DNA of 31,498 nucleotides from Cardiobacteriaceae bacterium (GCA_017934275.1 JAGBJT010000060.1:1-31498), one strand, 5' to 3'; positions 41-20,592 are shown, counted from the stretch's first letter. Translations and numbers: made by a program. Notes: a model not told the origin generated them from the sequence alone.

Positions 41-355
41 ATGGTTACCGTAAAAAATATACTTGTAAAATTCTATTCAGGTAATAAAACTGCTTCACAA
101 ACAGACATTATCCTAAAACATATAGATAACATCCAAGTAATATTTGATGAAGAAAATTTGTTTGAATATTGTCAAAACACCTTATCCATAATCAAGACAA
201 GAGTGGAAAATAATGATTTTTATGAAAGCAGTAAAAATAATGATTTATTCACTTTATCTTGTCAGTTGGCAAGAGCTTTAGATGGATATGGATACATTCT
301 AGATGAGGTGTCTTTATTGTGCGATGAGTTATATAGTCGTTTCAGTTCAAAATAA
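41..355 (+). CDS. Hypothetical small protein (104 aa). The last 8 codons and the TAA stop lie inside a MITE-like repeat.
   Basis: ORF with a good RBS (AAGAGG, 7 nt upstream of the ATG at 41). AT-rich, no recognisable motifs. It occupies the position downstream of yidC where mnmE is normally found. The C-terminus ...LYSRFSSK* is encoded by the element's inverted-repeat sequence. Confidence 0.4.
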   Translation: MVTVKNILVKFYSGNKTASQTDIILKHIDNIQVIFDEENLFEYCQNTLSIIKTRVENNDFYESSKNNDLFTLSCQLARALDGYGYILDEVSLLCDELYSRFSSK

Positions 356-438
356 GACAAGGCAGCGAGCCGAAGACAGTATCTATAATACGGCGAGGCA
401 AAGCTAACGCAGTATTATTTTGAAATGGAACGACTATA
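332..438. mobile_element. MITE-like small repeat element, copy A (107 bp), with 22-bp terminal inverted repeats
   Basis: Left end TATAGTCGTTTCAGTTCAAAAT and right end ATTTTGAAATGGAACGACTATA are inverted repeats with 2 mismatches. The element is nearly identical to a second copy at 15816-15920, with about 85-90% identity over the core. It is flanked by TA/TATA, reminiscent of Correia or Tc1-like TA target duplication. Confidence 0.75.
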
Positions 439-480
439 CGAGCTAATTTACGGTAAAAATAACTAACACTATCGGATTTG

Positions 481-513
481 AAGCGGCAATTTGCCGCTTT
501 TTTTTGTAAGTTT
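481..513 (+). terminator. Rho-independent terminator (GCGGCAAATTGCCGC stem followed by T8)
   Basis: Perfect 7-bp GC-rich inverted repeat followed by TTTTTTTT on the plus strand. It lies downstream of ORF 41-355 and the MITE, and abuts the yidC stop. Confidence 0.7.
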
Positions 514-2157
514 TCAATCATTCGCCGCTTTTGGCAGTTTCTTCTGCAATTTATTTTCACCGTAATGCTTATTCATCAGATATTGCTGCACAATACCGAA
601 AGCATTCGAAACCGTCCAGTAAAGCACCAATCCCGATGGAAATACCGCAAACATCATTCCGAAAATCAATGGCATCAGCAGCATCATTTTTTGCATCATC
701 GGATCAGGCGGTGGCGGATTGAGTTTTTGTTGCACAAACATCAAAGCGGTATTGATGATTGGCAATACAAAATAAGGGTCCATTACCGACAAATCCTTAA
801 TCCAGAAAATCCAAGCAGACTGCCGCAACTCGACACTCTCCGCCAACATATAGTAAAAAGCGATAAAGAACGGAATTTGCAACAACATCGGCAGACAGCC
901 GCTCATCGGATTGACTTGCTCGCGGCGGAATAATTTCATTTGTTCCTGCGCCATTCTTTGGCGATCTTCACCGTATCTTTCCCGCAAACGGTTCAGCTCT
1001 GGCTGCAAAAGTCGCATTTTTGCCATCGACTTATAAGCCCAAGCGGAAGGCATAAAAAATAACCCCTTAATCATCAAAGTAATAACTACAATCGACCAGC
1101 CCCAGTTTCCAAGTAGGGAATAAATCAAGTCCATTACCTTGAACATAAATTCCGAAATAATGAAAAGCCAACCGTAATCCACCGCTTTATCCAAATACGG
1201 TGCGGTTTTTTCTAGATTTTTAACAATTTTCGGACCGATATAAGCCTTTCCTGCAAACTCATAATCTCCACCGTTCGGCACGGTGAATAACTCGGTTTTA
1301 ACTCCGACGATATGGTCGCCCGTATTTTGGTTGTAATTCGTAAAAATTCTTTGCTCTTTACCGATTTCAGGCACAAACGCGGCAATGAAATAATGCTGAA
1401 TCATCGCCACCCAACCGTCTTTTCCAGCTATATCCTTTTGATATTTATTAGCCTTTTTAGAAGCTTGATTTATGCTTTCCAAGTCATCTAACTTTATCTT
1501 TTCATAACGCTTTTGTTCGGTGGAAATTGCTGCTCCCGTAAAAGTCGCGACATTCGATAAACCACCGCCCTGCGGTTTTCCAAAAGCAATTTGGTTATAC
1601 GCGCGCCCTACCCAATCACCGCCGCTTTCATTATGAATTTTTTGGCTAATTTCAATTTCATAACTGCCGCGCTTAAATGTAAAAGTTTTAACCGAAGTTA
1701 CGCCTTGTTCATCTGTCCAATAAAAAGGAACGGTCAATTTATCTTCACCGTCTTTTAAGTAATAAAACTCTTTATCAGCCGTCCAATTTGCAAGATGCGA
1801 CGGTGCATTTGTGTTGTCTCCGTGGGCAATTCCAGAGAGCATCTGCATACGGTTAGGATTATCCGAACGGATTAAAGAAAGCGGTTTTTCATCCTGCAAA
1901 GAAGTCGGATATTGCAATAAATTCGCCGCAATAATTCCTGCTCCTTTGGTGTCAATATGAACATCATAAACATCTGTTTTAATCCGCACCTTTTGGCTTC
2001 CAGAATTACCCTCTTGTATGTTTTCTGGCAGGCTCTCTTGCCGAGTTTGCTCCTGTGATAAATAATACTCTCGGTTCGCAATTTGCCATTTATTCCACAA
2101 AATAAAAGCCAAACCAAAAGCGATGATGTAAAGCATAACTCTTACATTTATTTTCAT
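514..2157 (-). CDS. yidC: Membrane protein insertase YidC
   Basis: 547 aa with an N-terminal TM anchor, a large periplasmic domain and the conserved C-terminal 5-TM core (…PLIINTALMFVQQKLNPPPPDPMMQKMM… motifs). Canonical position after rpmH-rnpA-yidD. Confidence 0.95.
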   Translation of the reverse strand: MKINVRVMLYIIAFGLAFILWNKWQIANREYYLSQEQTRQESLPENIQEGNSGSQKVRIKTDVYDVHIDTKGAGIIAANLLQYPTSLQDEKPLSLIRSDNPNRMQMLSGIAHGDNTNAPSHLANWTADKEFYYLKDGEDKLTVPFYWTDEQGVTSVKTFTFKRGSYEIEISQKIHNESGGDWVGRAYNQIAFGKPQGGGLSNVATFTGAAISTEQKRYEKIKLDDLESINQASKKANKYQKDIAGKDGWVAMIQHYFIAAFVPEIGKEQRIFTNYNQNTGDHIVGVKTELFTVPNGGDYEFAGKAYIGPKIVKNLEKTAPYLDKAVDYGWLFIISEFMFKVMDLIYSLLGNWGWSIVVITLMIKGLFFMPSAWAYKSMAKMRLLQPELNRLRERYGEDRQRMAQEQMKLFRREQVNPMSGCLPMLLQIPFFIAFYYMLAESVELRQSAWIFWIKDLSVMDPYFVLPIINTALMFVQQKLNPPPPDPMMQKMMLLMPLIFGMMFAVFPSGLVLYWTVSNAFGIVQQYLMNKHYGENKLQKKLPKAAND

Positions 2158-15511: not shown

Positions 15512-15820
15512 ATGTTCGACATCGGTTTTTGGGAATTAGTAACTATTGCGATAATCGGCGTAGTAGTTGTTGGTCCAGATAAATTGCCAGAAGTGATGCG
15601 GGGAATTTTCCGCTTTATTCATAACTTGCGAAGAATGTATCAAAACGCAAAAGCCGATATTTCCCGCGAACTTGAACTCGATGAACTACAAAAAATCGCC
15701 CGCGAAGGTAAAGATGATTTTCAAGATGCATTCGATTCTGTTGCCGAAGATGGTAAAGAATTACTCCGTGCCATCGATGAAAATCATCAAAATATTAAAA
15801 AAGAACTGCACGAGATATAG
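15512..15820 (+). CDS. tatB: Sec-independent translocase TatB
   Basis: 102 aa MFDIGFWELVTIAIIGVVVVGPDKLPEVMRGIFRFI…, the TatB family. The TAG stop at 15818-15820 is provided by the first bases of the MITE copy. Confidence 0.85.
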   Translation: MFDIGFWELVTIAIIGVVVVGPDKLPEVMRGIFRFIHNLRRMYQNAKADISRELELDELQKIAREGKDDFQDAFDSVAEDGKELLRAIDENHQNIKKELHEI

Positions 15821-15920
15821 TCGTTTCAGTTCAAAATCAGACAAGGCAGCGAGCTTAAAGACTGTATCAGAATACGGCGAGGAAGCTCCCGCAGTATTAT
15901 TTTGAAATGGAACGACTATA
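15816..15920. mobile_element. MITE-like small repeat element, copy B (105 bp), inserted between tatB and tatC
   Basis: Same 22-bp terminal inverted repeats as copy A (TATAGTCGTTTCAGTTCAAAAT … ATTTTGAAATGGAACGACTATA). Shared core GACAAGGCAGCGAGC…AATACGGCGAGG…GCAGTATTATTTTGAAATGGAACGACTATA. The TIRs can pair to form a long hairpin in the tat operon transcript. Confidence 0.75.
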
Positions 15921-15960
15921 AAAGAAGAAGTCGAAAAAACTCCTAATACGGAATAATTAA

Positions 15961-16764
15961 ATGGACAAAAAATTATTAGAAGAACAAAATCCAGAACTTG
16001 CAGCAGACCGCGAAAATGAATTGCAAGATACGGAAATGTCTTTCGTTGAACATTTAATTGAACTTCGTAGCCGTTTGATAAAAATTTTAGTATCCGTAGG
16101 TGTAATTTTTTTAGCTCTTTTACCTTTTTATCAGAAGATTTACGAGATATTTGCTTACCCTGTTCTTACTAATTTATTACCTGGTCAGCAAATGCTCGCC
16201 CATCAACCTATCGATGTTTTTTTAACCCCTATTAAGGTTTCTTTATTCATCTCTGTGCTTATTGCAATGCCGATAATTTTGCGGCAAATTTGGCTTTTTA
16301 TAGCACCTGCAATGTATAAAAAAGAAAAGAAATTGATGCTTCCGTTAGTGGTTTCATCAACTTTTCTTTTTTATCTCGGAGTTTTATTCGCCTATTTTGT
16401 CATTTTGCCCTTACTCTTTGCCTTTTTATCCAAAATCGGGGCGAATATGAATGGTGTTGCTTTAATGCCTGATATTACCGCTTATTTAGGCTTGTCATTG
16501 AAGCTCTTTTTGGCTTTCGGAATAGTGTTTGAAGTGCCGATTGCAACCGTAATTTTGATTCAAAGTGGCATAGTCAAAATCTCCACTCTTACGGCAAAAA
16601 GACCATATATCATTTTGGCAGCTTTCACTATCGGAATGTTGCTCACCCCTCCTGATGTTTTTTCGCAAACTTTACTTGCCGTTCCTATGCTTTTGTTATT
16701 TGAACTGGGAATTTTGGTCGCGAAATTTTTGGAAAAAAAACGGGCTGATAACCGCTCGAATTAA
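15961..16764 (+). CDS. tatC: Sec-independent translocase TatC
   Basis: …HLIELRSRLIK…, six-TM TatC topology, LTPPDVFSQTLLAVPMLLLFELG near-identical to the E. coli TatC C-terminus. Start ambiguous: M1 at 15961 or the MSFVEH Met at 16036. Confidence 0.85.
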   Translation: MDKKLLEEQNPELAADRENELQDTEMSFVEHLIELRSRLIKILVSVGVIFLALLPFYQKIYEIFAYPVLTNLLPGQQMLAHQPIDVFLTPIKVSLFISVLIAMPIILRQIWLFIAPAMYKKEKKLMLPLVVSSTFLFYLGVLFAYFVILPLLFAFLSKIGANMNGVALMPDITAYLGLSLKLFLAFGIVFEVPIATVILIQSGIVKISTLTAKRPYIILAAFTIGMLLTPPDVFSQTLLAVPMLLLFELGILVAKFLEKKRADNRSN

Positions 16765-18417: not shown

Positions 18418-20592
18418 ATGCGCACAATATATTTTTTAAGAGGTCTTCCTGCTTCTGGAAAAAGCTTTTGGGTTAAAGAAAATAATCTCACTCCTTACAC
18501 TATTAGTTCCGATGAAATACGCTTGATGTATGCCGCGCCAGTTATAGATAATGACGGTAATTACACTATTTCGCAAAAATATAACAAAAAAGTTTGGAAA
18601 CAATTATTCAGTCTTTTAGAAGAAAAAATGGGGCGCGGAGAGTTTATCATCGTCGATGCAACTCATTATCGTGATAGTGCTTTGAGGGAATATAAAAAGC
18701 TGATAAATCATTACCGTTATCGCGCTTTTATTGTTGATTTTACTGATGTTGCATTAGAAACAATTTTAGAACGAAATCAACAACGGGAAAGTTATAAAAT
18801 AGTGCCTGAAAAAACCATTTATAAAATGCACAATGTTTTACGGCAAAATAATAATGAAATATATCCGAAATTAAGTCCAAAAGATGCGCTAGAACAACTA
18901 AATAAATCTCTTATTTTCGATTTTAATCATTACGAAAAGGTTATAATTTTTGGGGATATTCACGGTTGTTTTACTCCTCTTAATCATTATTTTCAAGAAA
19001 ATCCATTCTCGGAAAATAATGCTTATATTTTTCTCGGTGATTATGTCGATCGCGGAATAGAACATCATAAAACATTCGAGCTTTTGCTATCTATTTATCA
19101 CTTAAAAAATGTATTAGTTTTAGAAGGTAATCACGAAAGATGGCTGCGCTTTTATGCCGAAGATGATGAGGCGAGCTTTGCCCGAATTAAATCCAAAACT
19201 TTTTTGGAAAAAACCGCGCCAGAACTTGAAAATCTAGATAAAAAGGATTTACGGCAATTTTGCCGCACGCTCGGTCAAATGGCTTATTTTTCATTTGCAG
19301 GAAAAGAATATTTCGCCTCACACGGTGGAGTTGGCTGTTTGCCGCATTTATTTATAAACACCCAGCAATATATAAACGGGGTTGGCAGCTATGAAGATAC
19401 CGAAAGTTTATATGACGCTTGGGAGAAAAATACCGCCGACAATTGCGTTTTAATTCACGGACATCGTAATACCGAAAATCTCCCCGCAAAAGTCCGAAGC
19501 CGTTGTTATAACTTATGCAGTGAAATTGAATACGGAGATAGTTTAAGAGTGCTAGAAATTTCACGCAAGAGGGAAGAAATTAAGCAATATCCAAATCCTA
19601 TTTATGACAAAAATTTACCGAAAAAGCCGCGAGTAATAAAGAATAATGCCATTTTAAGCGACAATGAATTACTTAATCAGCTTAATTTAAGCCCGTTAAT
19701 CATTAAAAAATCTTTTGATAACGGTATTATTTCTTACAATTTTTCCCGTGATGCCTTTTATAAAAAAGAATGGAATAACTTAACTTGCCGTGCAAGAGGG
19801 GTATTTATTTTTAATGACAGGGTAGTTTGTAGAAGTTATAACAAATTTTTCAATTGGTATGAAAGAAAAGAAACTAGTGATGAGGAATTAGAGAAAAATT
19901 TGCGTTTTCCCGTCCGTGCATACAGAAAGGAAAATGGCTTTCTAGCAATGGTTTCCGTCTTTAATAATGATTTTTTAGTGTGCAGCAAATCGACTATTTC
20001 TGGCACTTTTGTCGGATATATCAATAATGCCTTGGACAGATTATCAGAAGATACTAGAAAAGCTATTTTTAACCATTGCCAGAAAAATAATGTAACATTT
20101 GTTTTTGAATGCGTTGATATTAAAAACGACCCCCATATTGTGCAATATCAAAATAATCATTTATATTTATTAGACATCGTGCAAAATGATTTTGAATTTA
20201 AGAAAATTCCCTATGAAGAGTTAATAAAAATAGCCAAAGAATGTAATTTAGAACACAAGGAATTGGAAAAAGAGTTTAAGTCTTGGAACGAACTAAACAG
20301 CTATAAAAATAAACTAGAAGAGAGCTTAAATTTACAAAATAGAGGGTGGAGTGAAGGATTTGTTTTAGAAGATAAAAACGGCTTTATGCTTAAATATAAA
20401 AATCCCAATTACCGCCTATGGAAGCAATTGCGTTCAGTGCTAGAAAGATTGCAAATGGATAAACAAATAACGGTGAATAATTTTTCACAACAGGCACAAG
20501 AGGTAATCAAACTAATGCAGAACTTAAAAGCGGAAAATAAATTAAACCGCTTAAAAATTACCGACATTCAAAATATATATTGGAATTCATAA
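18418..20592 (+). CDS. Tri-domain polynucleotide kinase / lambda-type phosphatase / ligase-like nucleotidyltransferase (bacterial Pnkp-like RNA end-healing and sealing enzyme), 724 aa
   Basis: Residues 1-~160 are a P-loop 5'-OH polynucleotide kinase: GLPASGKSFW (compare T4 Pnk GCPGSGKSTW), Asp in SSDEIR, RNQQR lid (RxxxR). Residues ~175-370 are a binuclear metallophosphatase of the lambda-phosphatase/PPP type: GDIHGC, GDYVDRG, GNHE, HGG, GH motifs. Residues ~400-724 are a covalent-nucleotidyltransferase (RNA/DNA ligase superfamily)-like domain: motif I-like KENG (K504), motif IV EGFVLE (646-651), motif V LKYK (658-661). Markedly more AT-rich than the flanking genes. No hen1 adjacent. Confidence 0.6.
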   Translation: MRTIYFLRGLPASGKSFWVKENNLTPYTISSDEIRLMYAAPVIDNDGNYTISQKYNKKVWKQLFSLLEEKMGRGEFIIVDATHYRDSALREYKKLINHYRYRAFIVDFTDVALETILERNQQRESYKIVPEKTIYKMHNVLRQNNNEIYPKLSPKDALEQLNKSLIFDFNHYEKVIIFGDIHGCFTPLNHYFQENPFSENNAYIFLGDYVDRGIEHHKTFELLLSIYHLKNVLVLEGNHERWLRFYAEDDEASFARIKSKTFLEKTAPELENLDKKDLRQFCRTLGQMAYFSFAGKEYFASHGGVGCLPHLFINTQQYINGVGSYEDTESLYDAWEKNTADNCVLIHGHRNTENLPAKVRSRCYNLCSEIEYGDSLRVLEISRKREEIKQYPNPIYDKNLPKKPRVIKNNAILSDNELLNQLNLSPLIIKKSFDNGIISYNFSRDAFYKKEWNNLTCRARGVFIFNDRVVCRSYNKFFNWYERKETSDEELEKNLRFPVRAYRKENGFLAMVSVFNNDFLVCSKSTISGTFVGYINNALDRLSEDTRKAIFNHCQKNNVTFVFECVDIKNDPHIVQYQNNHLYLLDIVQNDFEFKKIPYEELIKIAKECNLEHKELEKEFKSWNELNSYKNKLEESLNLQNRGWSEGFVLEDKNGFMLKYKNPNYRLWKQLRSVLERLQMDKQITVNNFSQQAQEVIKLMQNLKAENKLNRLKITDIQNIYWNS

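Follow-up and report, generated by a model that had tools for sequence, protein, structure and literature searches.

Correia elements are the founding MITEs of bacteria, and they rewire gene expression in pathogenic Neisseria. These elements (CREE, nemis) fall into size classes of 153-157, 104-108 and 69-73 bp, carry inverted Correia repeats and are bordered by a target duplication; they generate promoters, contain an IHF site in the long form only, and their hairpin is bound by RNase III (PMC2649163). Promoters, IHF, RNase III and TA duplication are covered together with a mobilising mechanism given as not determined (PMC2649163, PMC10969869), and the mobiliser has not been found after almost 40 years (PMC2649163, PMC5039591). 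CREE have been described as "unique to the Neisseria spp." (PMC5039591). Reviews found in our literature search list Correia under Neisseria only, and the phrase "Correia-like" is absent from the searched literature. In a survey of 183,232 genomes, MITE clusters were overwhelmingly genus-specific (PMC11602168). Published searches for the 26-bp Correia repeat (TATAG[CT]GGATTAA...) allowed at most 3 mismatches (PMC2911385). ERIC/IRU of Enterobacteriaceae and Vibrionaceae is likewise a TA-flanked hairpin MITE; ERIC is about 127 bp long, is co-transcribed and affects mRNA stability (PMC3184786, PMC10969869).

The stretch of DNA analysed here (the window) comprises 31,498 nucleotides and carries two hairpin elements of 107 and 105 bp. 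Very probably, both are copies of a non-autonomous, TA-duplicating MITE that forms a sister subfamily of the short Neisseria Correia elements in a ruminant-gut member of Cardiobacteriaceae, a reading that includes insertion into tatB, mobilisation in trans and, by analogy, processing of the hairpin. What is new is a Correia-type element with a diverged sub-terminal TIR in an unexpected host; the Correia family itself is known. Features of the two regions are as follows.

41-355, plus strand: ORF of 104 aa, whose last seven codons and TAA stop (353-355) come from the left TIR of copy A.
332-438, plus strand: MITE copy A (Correia-type), 107 bp counting the TA on either side (332-333, 437-438); recognised by the covariance model.
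332-353, plus strand: left TIR of copy A, TATAGTCGTTTCAGTTCAAAAT; pattern match.
372-397, plus strand: apical core of copy A, GAAGACAGTATCTATAATACGGCGAG, a module common to Correia and the whole proposed superfamily.
417-438, minus strand: right TIR of copy A, TATAGTCGTTCCATTTCAAAAT in minus-strand reading; pattern match.
439-466, plus strand: putative orphaned 3' end of the 104-aa ORF, which together with TA would read YELIYGKNN* after removal of the element.
480-508, plus strand: real intrinsic terminator outside the element, between the 104-aa ORF and yidC.
514-2157, minus strand: yidC, convergent with the 104-aa ORF.
15512-15820, plus strand: tatB (TatA/B-family gene), truncated to 102 aa, with its TAG stop (15818-15820) formed by TATAG of the element.
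15816-15920, plus strand: MITE copy B, 105 bp counting both copies of the duplicated TA (15816-15817, 15919-15920); recognised by the covariance model.
15816-15837, plus strand: left TIR of copy B; pattern match.
15857-15881, plus strand: apical core of copy B, a diverged module reading AAAGACTGTATCAGAATACGGCGAG.
15899-15920, minus strand: right TIR of copy B; pattern match.
15921-15956, plus strand: orphaned tatB end downstream of the insertion, last 11 codons and stop (KEEVEKTPNTE*), from comparison with uninterrupted TatB.
15961-16764, plus strand: tatC, starting 4 nt after the tatB stop in the empty lineage and 140 nt after the new stop here.

Exactly four matches to the 22-mers TATAGTCGTTTCAGTTCAAAAT and TATAGTCGTTCCATTTCAAAAT exist in the window, forming two inverted pairs, with none expected from 100 shuffles; this bears out both the coordinates and the shared ends reported in an earlier note on this DNA. 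TIRs of copies A and B are identical at 44 of 44 positions and their interiors are 80% identical. Left and right arms, each of 22 bp, are complementary at 20 of 22 positions, and TA stands at both ends of either element, as had also been noticed. The covariance model of the family scores copy A at 113 bits (E 1.2e-23) and copy B at 95 bits (E 1.7e-19), and no credible third copy was found in the 31.5-kb window, the next-best match having 17 bits (E 0.1). The long hairpin expected from the paired TIRs is indeed predicted, each copy folding over its full length with dG of -37.0 (A) and -38.9 (B) kcal/mol and z of -7.2 and -7.6 relative to shuffles; the opposite strand of both copies folds slightly less stably. 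Elements are non-coding, since ORFs enter them only from outside. The whole window yielded no match in Rfam 15 at the gathering threshold.

The earlier note had considered the hairpin as a possible terminator. The T-run that an intrinsic terminator has after its hairpin is absent at both copies, a consensus scan for terminators and promoters returned none in copy A or copy B, and the real terminator near copy A lies outside it, at 480-500. The TATAGT tip, which provides the -10 of the Snyder promoter in Correia, is kept in the window copies, and the consensus scan predicted no promoter there. A role of either copy as terminator or promoter is not supported by these predictions.

Copy B lies within the tat operon, with tatA upstream, tatB before and tatC after it. 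When copy B and one TA are removed in silico, tatB reads ...HEI-KEEVEKTPNTE and stops at 15954-15956, 4 nt before the tatC ATG. This TatB of 113 aa was first predicted from sequence and then found in the 90% protein cluster of TatB, where the uninterrupted protein (P0124) ends ...HEIKEEVEKNPNTE. Contigs with the empty site (L041-L044, of which L042 belongs to Cardiobacteriaceae MAG RGIG4814) keep synteny with the window, with about 90% identity along 20 kb. They read CACGAA-A-TA-AAAGAAG, compared with CACGAG-A-TA[TAGTCG...CGACTA]TA-AAAGAAG in the window. The insertion at tatB consists of 103 bp plus TA duplication and falls within the last 12 codons. Copy B is a cut-and-paste-type insertion into a TA in the 3' end of tatB, which shortened TatB by 11 residues, donated the TAG stop and placed tatC 136 nt further downstream. 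The sister lineage has no copies in about 70 kb; in the host lineage, only two copies are visible. A copy of a different TIR subtype (L018 441-547) similarly ends an upstream ORF of 147 aa with its TAG.

In silico removal of copy A and one TA lets the 104-aa ORF continue as ...L-YELIYGKNN with a stop at 464-466. The product of this ORF is 100% identical to an NCBI hypothetical protein of a Cardiobacteriaceae MAG. Relatives proved uninformative at this copy, so that the search for empty sites, which the earlier note had proposed, succeeded for copy B and not for copy A. Those of the YidC cluster (L045) lose homology exactly at the yidC stop, in L046 the contig merely breaks at the element, and L038 and L039, in which the ORF has a 65-aa relative, cease to match at window position 171, before the element is reached. 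Since homology with the sister lineage ends at the yidC stop codon, the DNA past yidC is taken as a variable island. Copy A would likewise have gone into coding sequence, replacing the last nine codons of a small ORF in this island.

In the earlier note both copies were placed exactly at the 3' end of a gene. Their nearness to gene ends stands; however, in either case the last part of an ORF runs within the element and ends at a stop codon that the element provides. In one reading frame, a TATAG tip always contributes such a stop. Transcription as 3' UTRs, as had been proposed, is not supported: copy B is intercistronic because it sits between tatB and tatC within the tat operon, and copy A appears to replace the last codons of the small ORF.

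Two observations concern neighbouring genes. Upstream of window position 1 (L003 1-1217; L038 241-2381), a MafB-family toxin gene (PF06255) and a SUFU-like putative immunity gene are present; the 104-aa ORF is located just downstream of them and shares its first 44 or so codons with the 65-aa alternative. MafB is a toxin family of Neisseria. The region by yidC looks like a polymorphic toxin/immunity cassette island, and the MafB neighbour would be another hint of gene flow with Neisseriaceae. Further along the window (18418-20592, plus strand), directly downstream of gshA, lies the gene for a 724-aa protein with three kinds of domain (AAA_33 kinase, calcineurin-like phosphoesterase, T4-type RNA ligase); the protein is also conserved in the sister lineage and looks like a Pnkp-like RNA repair enzyme.

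The host was assessed from several genes. Nearest named relatives of the window TatC are Suttonella sp., a Cardiobacteriaceae bacterium and Rappaport israeli (63-66%), and no Neisseriaceae appear among its best 120 matches. NCBI proteins identical to TatB, YidC and the 104-aa ORF product of the window are all labelled Cardiobacteriaceae MAG. DUS AGGCTGCCTGAA/AGGCAGCCTGAA were counted 118 times in 70.5 kb of Neisseriaceae MAG loci and 0 times in the 31.5-kb window; these 12-mers represent two dialects, AG-simDUS and AG-kingDUS, that characterise Simonsiella, Alysiella and Kingella negevensis (PMC7371117). Judged by these sequences, the host is an uncultured ruminant-gut member of Cardiobacteriaceae (Gammaproteobacteria).

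For comparison with Correia, real Correia copies were collected by an exact Correia-repeat search of IMG/VR, in which 19 contigs gave elements of 155 bp and of 105-106 bp. Window elements can be aligned with the short form over their whole length, with 69% identity overall, 77% in the core (81% for MAG copies) and about 58% in the sub-terminal TIR; global alignment scores are 9-11 SD above those of shuffles. Both families share the length class (105 and 107 bp here), TATAGT...ACTATA tips, TA target duplication, the full-length hairpin and a conserved core of fixed polarity that is collinear throughout (…ACAAGGC…CG.AGACAGTA…TACGGC.AGG…AACGC.GTA…). Like CREE, the new elements have two slightly different TIR variants, one per end, encode no protein, and are mostly intergenic and close to gene ends, sometimes inserted in coding sequence. 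In addition, a derivative of about 70 bp (L015) resembles that of gonococcal Correia.

Several features are unlike CREE. The sub-terminal TIR is only about 58% identical (CGTTTCAGTTCAAAAT vs GGATTAACAAAAATCAG), with 13-14 of 22 aligned TIR positions the same, and both arms have changed together, in compensatory fashion, between the families. The central stem is GTAT/ATAC here and GTAC/GTAC in Correia, the IHF-site-bearing long form of 155 bp was not encountered in the new subfamily, and no Black-type promoter is predicted at either window copy. Hosts differ too: instead of being restricted to Neisseria, the elements occur in Cardiobacteriaceae and in non-Neisseria Neisseriaceae with AG-simDUS/AG-kingDUS dialect, and relatives are found in Nitrosomonas. 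Because the Correia-repeat comparison fails though size, core, tips and TA agree, we speak of a sister subfamily and not of strict CREE. A relationship to ERIC was tried and rejected: with copy A as query, blastn matched none of 5,426 E. coli genomes at E<=1.

Beyond the window, at least ten MAG loci carry this TIR, and complete copies occupy unrelated positions in three Neisseriaceae MAGs. Several metagenome contigs end at or within the element, a further sign that it is a repeat. MAG copies measure 102-108 bp, and a 70-bp form occurs at L015; no long form was seen. The earlier note's proposal of a MITE family agrees with these TA-duplicating, hairpin-forming elements at many loci in other genomes. 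Occurrence at the two window sites only, or unrelated cores behind similar ends, had been named there as the sign of a local duplication; since copies are present at many loci in other genomes, that is not what is seen. Between the window and Neisseriaceae MAG copies the TIR pair is identical at 44 of 44 positions and interiors are only about 72% identical. The habitat common to the window host and the Neisseriaceae MAGs is the ruminant forestomach. Since the same 22-bp TIR occurs in gamma- and betaproteobacteria, the same or a very similar transposase specificity is suggested for both. Sequence comparison makes horizontal spread between Cardiobacteriaceae and Neisseriaceae likely; the window and Neisseriaceae copies are no recent transfer of one another. 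The TIR pattern gave 0 matches in JGI metagenomes and 0 in IMG/VR, so this TIR type looks confined to ruminant data sets.

Two further candidates from the TIR search were set aside. In a MAG labelled "Acidobacteriota" (L016 7819-7840, JANPBM010000053.1), the left TIR is matched exactly (22 of 22), without core or partner TIR; this 22-mer lies in AT-rich intergenic DNA, 160 bp before the end of the locus, on a contig with 45% GC, and chance, a remnant or mis-binning may account for it. A decayed copy in a MAG with the empty tatB site (L007 61-167, JAFUTP010000021.1) was rejected as a second Cardiobacteriaceae copy. Its binning is doubtful because the contig has 44% GC compared with 39% for the other contigs of the MAG, and because it carries a different REP-like repeat, GGGTGGGCAACTTGTTGCCCAC.

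To look beyond this TIR type, JGI metagenomes were scanned with core pattern GMAGACAGTATNNNTAATACGGCRAG, which excludes Neisseria Correia itself, and at least 120 stretches were retrieved. Among the metagenome matches listed, the covariance model recognised about 80 complete elements of 100-118 bp (for example L061 607-713, L096 4426-4533, L057 809-913 and L074 6677-6782; loci L048-L167). These core-sharing elements have the same apical core, hairpin architecture and length as the window copies. In contrast, their TIRs are unrelated (e.g. TTCCAATTCCAAATC...): at least 12 unrelated TIR types were distinguished among the matches listed, in hosts with 33-61% GC, with or without DUS. In the listed elements the core is conserved and the TIR variable, the reverse of the usual MITE pattern; core invariance is partly a matter of ascertainment, since the core itself was the search pattern. 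Invariance of the apical block AGACAGTAT-N3-TAATACGGC also holds for the copies of the window, the MAGs and Correia, none of which came from the core scan.

The type with TTCCAATTCC...GGAATGGAA ends, about 101 bp long (L053, L057, L064, L073, L100-L104, L119-L125 and others, Ga0206106/7 contigs), is flanked at most sites by identical 3-bp TNA (TAA, TTA, TCA, TGA) and not by 2-bp TA. Its host is Nitrosomonas, since the contig also encodes an ArgH with 96% identity to the N. europaea protein. The TNA duplication and the unrelated TIR point to a different transposase specificity for this type, so that one core is found with two insertion signatures, TA and TNA.

Covariation was examined in a non-redundant MAFFT alignment of 37 sequences, Correia included. 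Compensatory double changes are found at 23 of 28 predicted pairs, 94.5% of the cells are paired (68% in shuffles, 32-41% with the register slid), and the covariation score of 0.66, compared with 0.18, was reached by none of 500 shuffles. Covariation extends to helices internal to the TIRs. Covariation of the arms is no proof of an RNA role, because it is equally expected from recognition of both ends by a transposase or from DNA palindromy. On the core-plus strand, G-U wobbles outnumber A-C mismatches by 54 to 20, a bias that is only suggestive because the copies are related to one another. Copies occur in both orientations relative to neighbour genes and adjoin 5' and 3' gene ends alike.

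Some elements are nested. Three independent insertions, by different TIR types, lie at the central TA of another element's core, ...GTAT.AA-TA-ATACGG..., with TA duplication seen in L011 and L018 (L011 3562-3773 and 2578-3021; L018 6645-6855; L017 3606-3762); L017 is a deletion derivative that arose by recombination between the repeated core halves of such a nest. From these positions, the core loop looks like an insertion hot spot. A non-coding element of 339 bp (L014 2073-2411, L011 2626-2964) has TIRs of the TATAGTC-N10-CAAAAT type and an unrelated interior with several hairpins and a DUS-like sequence; as it is devoid of the Correia-type core, such TIRs also carry other cargo.

It is possible, and we put it forward tentatively, that Correia is one branch of a large undescribed superfamily of hairpin MITEs of about 100 bp in Neisseriales, Nitrosomonadales and Cardiobacteriales. 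The conserved unit would be an asymmetric core of about 26-30 nt (CG.AGACAGTAT-N3-TAATACGGC.AG), with TIRs swapped among at least 12 types and with TA and TNA duplication classes. This superfamily is the more novel lead, and it comes partly from an ascertainment-biased scan.

One may ask if the elements are primarily a structured RNA or ssDNA module under selection, with a functional core, interchangeable TIRs as its carriers and mobility as a secondary property. The joining of an apical core of about 26 nt to many unrelated TIRs, with two duplication classes and in several host lineages, would fit such a module, as would the covarying internal helices beyond the TIRs, the preference of G-U over A-C, and the fact that Correia RNA is a known substrate of RNase III (PMC2649163). 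We nevertheless consider this improbable: metagenome matches were chosen by the very core whose invariance is at issue, the wobble count is taken over related copies, orientation and gene end are indifferent, no Rfam family corresponds, and the 339-bp element has the same TIR type without the core.

That the copies represent a wholly novel MITE family, unrelated to described elements, is considerably less probable still. It is what the earlier note implied in stating that the TIR matches no known element, and a TIR so distant from the Correia repeat would indeed be missed by published search patterns; Rfam gave no match either. The full-length collinearity with short Correia and the core identity of 77-81% argue otherwise, and the elements turn out to be homologues of Correia, the analogy that the note itself had drawn. 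Moreover, an unbiased blastn search of copy A against 7.3 Gb of plasmid records matched only two records, both of N. gonorrhoeae, at full length with 73% identity (E 3e-6), and the sequence matched in both is a typical short Correia element. These records (PLSDB NZ_CP119140.1 and NZ_CP119142.1, about 2.17 Mb) are presumably chromosomes filed as plasmids. As blastn found no match in phages and only the gonococcal ones among plasmids, a phage or plasmid vehicle is unsupported.

A local duplication or an immobile host palindrome, REP-like or a terminator hairpin, might be suspected from the presence of only two copies in the window, both following ORFs in the same orientation and both with a strong hairpin. 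REP elements are much shorter and produce no target duplication, which counts against a REP-like reading. Given the empty site with TA duplication in a syntenic relative, copies at unrelated loci in other genomes, nested insertions and the lack of a T-run after the hairpin, we hold immobility to be very unlikely. An assembly chimera, in which the repeat joined Neisseriaceae and Cardiobacteriaceae DNA, is scarcely credible: assemblers do break or mis-join at this repeat and co-habiting Neisseriaceae have the same TIR, but the sister lineage, though it has no element at the copy-B site, stays collinear with the window there, the same copy-A junction occurs in independent assemblies from different samples and assemblers (L003, L006, L046), and no DUS is present anywhere in the window.

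We thus return to a mobile sister subfamily of short Correia. Such an element would have kept the tips, length and core of Correia while its sub-terminal TIR diverged, and a transposase acting in trans would recognise the 22-bp TIR that is identical in co-habiting Neisseriaceae. Searches of the window, 12 genome loci and 120 listed metagenome loci yielded no transposase with matching TIRs, a test limited by the fragmentation of MAGs and metagenomes. Inverted TIR-like pairs 0.3-5 kb apart in L048, L061, L106, L141 and L157 were examined as candidates for an autonomous parent and rejected; they enclose DAO, M20 peptidase, FolD, FKBP and similar housekeeping genes. A duplicated TA is in keeping with IS630/Tc1-mariner or with some IS5-family groups, a duplicated TNA with IS5-family groups. 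We infer mobilisation in trans by a DDE transposase. Once inserted, the element would be co-transcribed with tatAB-tatC and with the 104-aa ORF, and its transcript is predicted to fold into a hairpin of about 105 nt, the kind of structure that is bound or cleaved by RNase III in Correia mRNAs. By homology with Correia, a role in RNase III processing or mRNA stability is plausible; at copy B, the hairpin could uncouple the mRNA levels of tatAB and tatC.

The finding extends a family regarded as confined to Neisseria: a clear Correia homologue with a different TIR is present in another class of proteobacteria, caught as a filled/empty polymorphism. With a hairpin of about 105 nt between tatB and tatC, copy B is an experiment of nature in how a MITE may uncouple an operon. 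Core-sharing relatives that differ in TIRs and duplication length give comparative leverage that a Neisseria-only view lacks, and it can now be asked which transposase families belong to each TIR type and why the core is kept when the transposase-binding ends vary. If the superfamily is real, the core would be a module with a function of its own, such as offering a site to a host or transposition factor or forming a hairpin tip required in ssDNA or RNA; it would also be a preferred landing site, as the three nested insertions at the central TA suggest, and lineages with recent insertions would offer a route to the Correia transposase.
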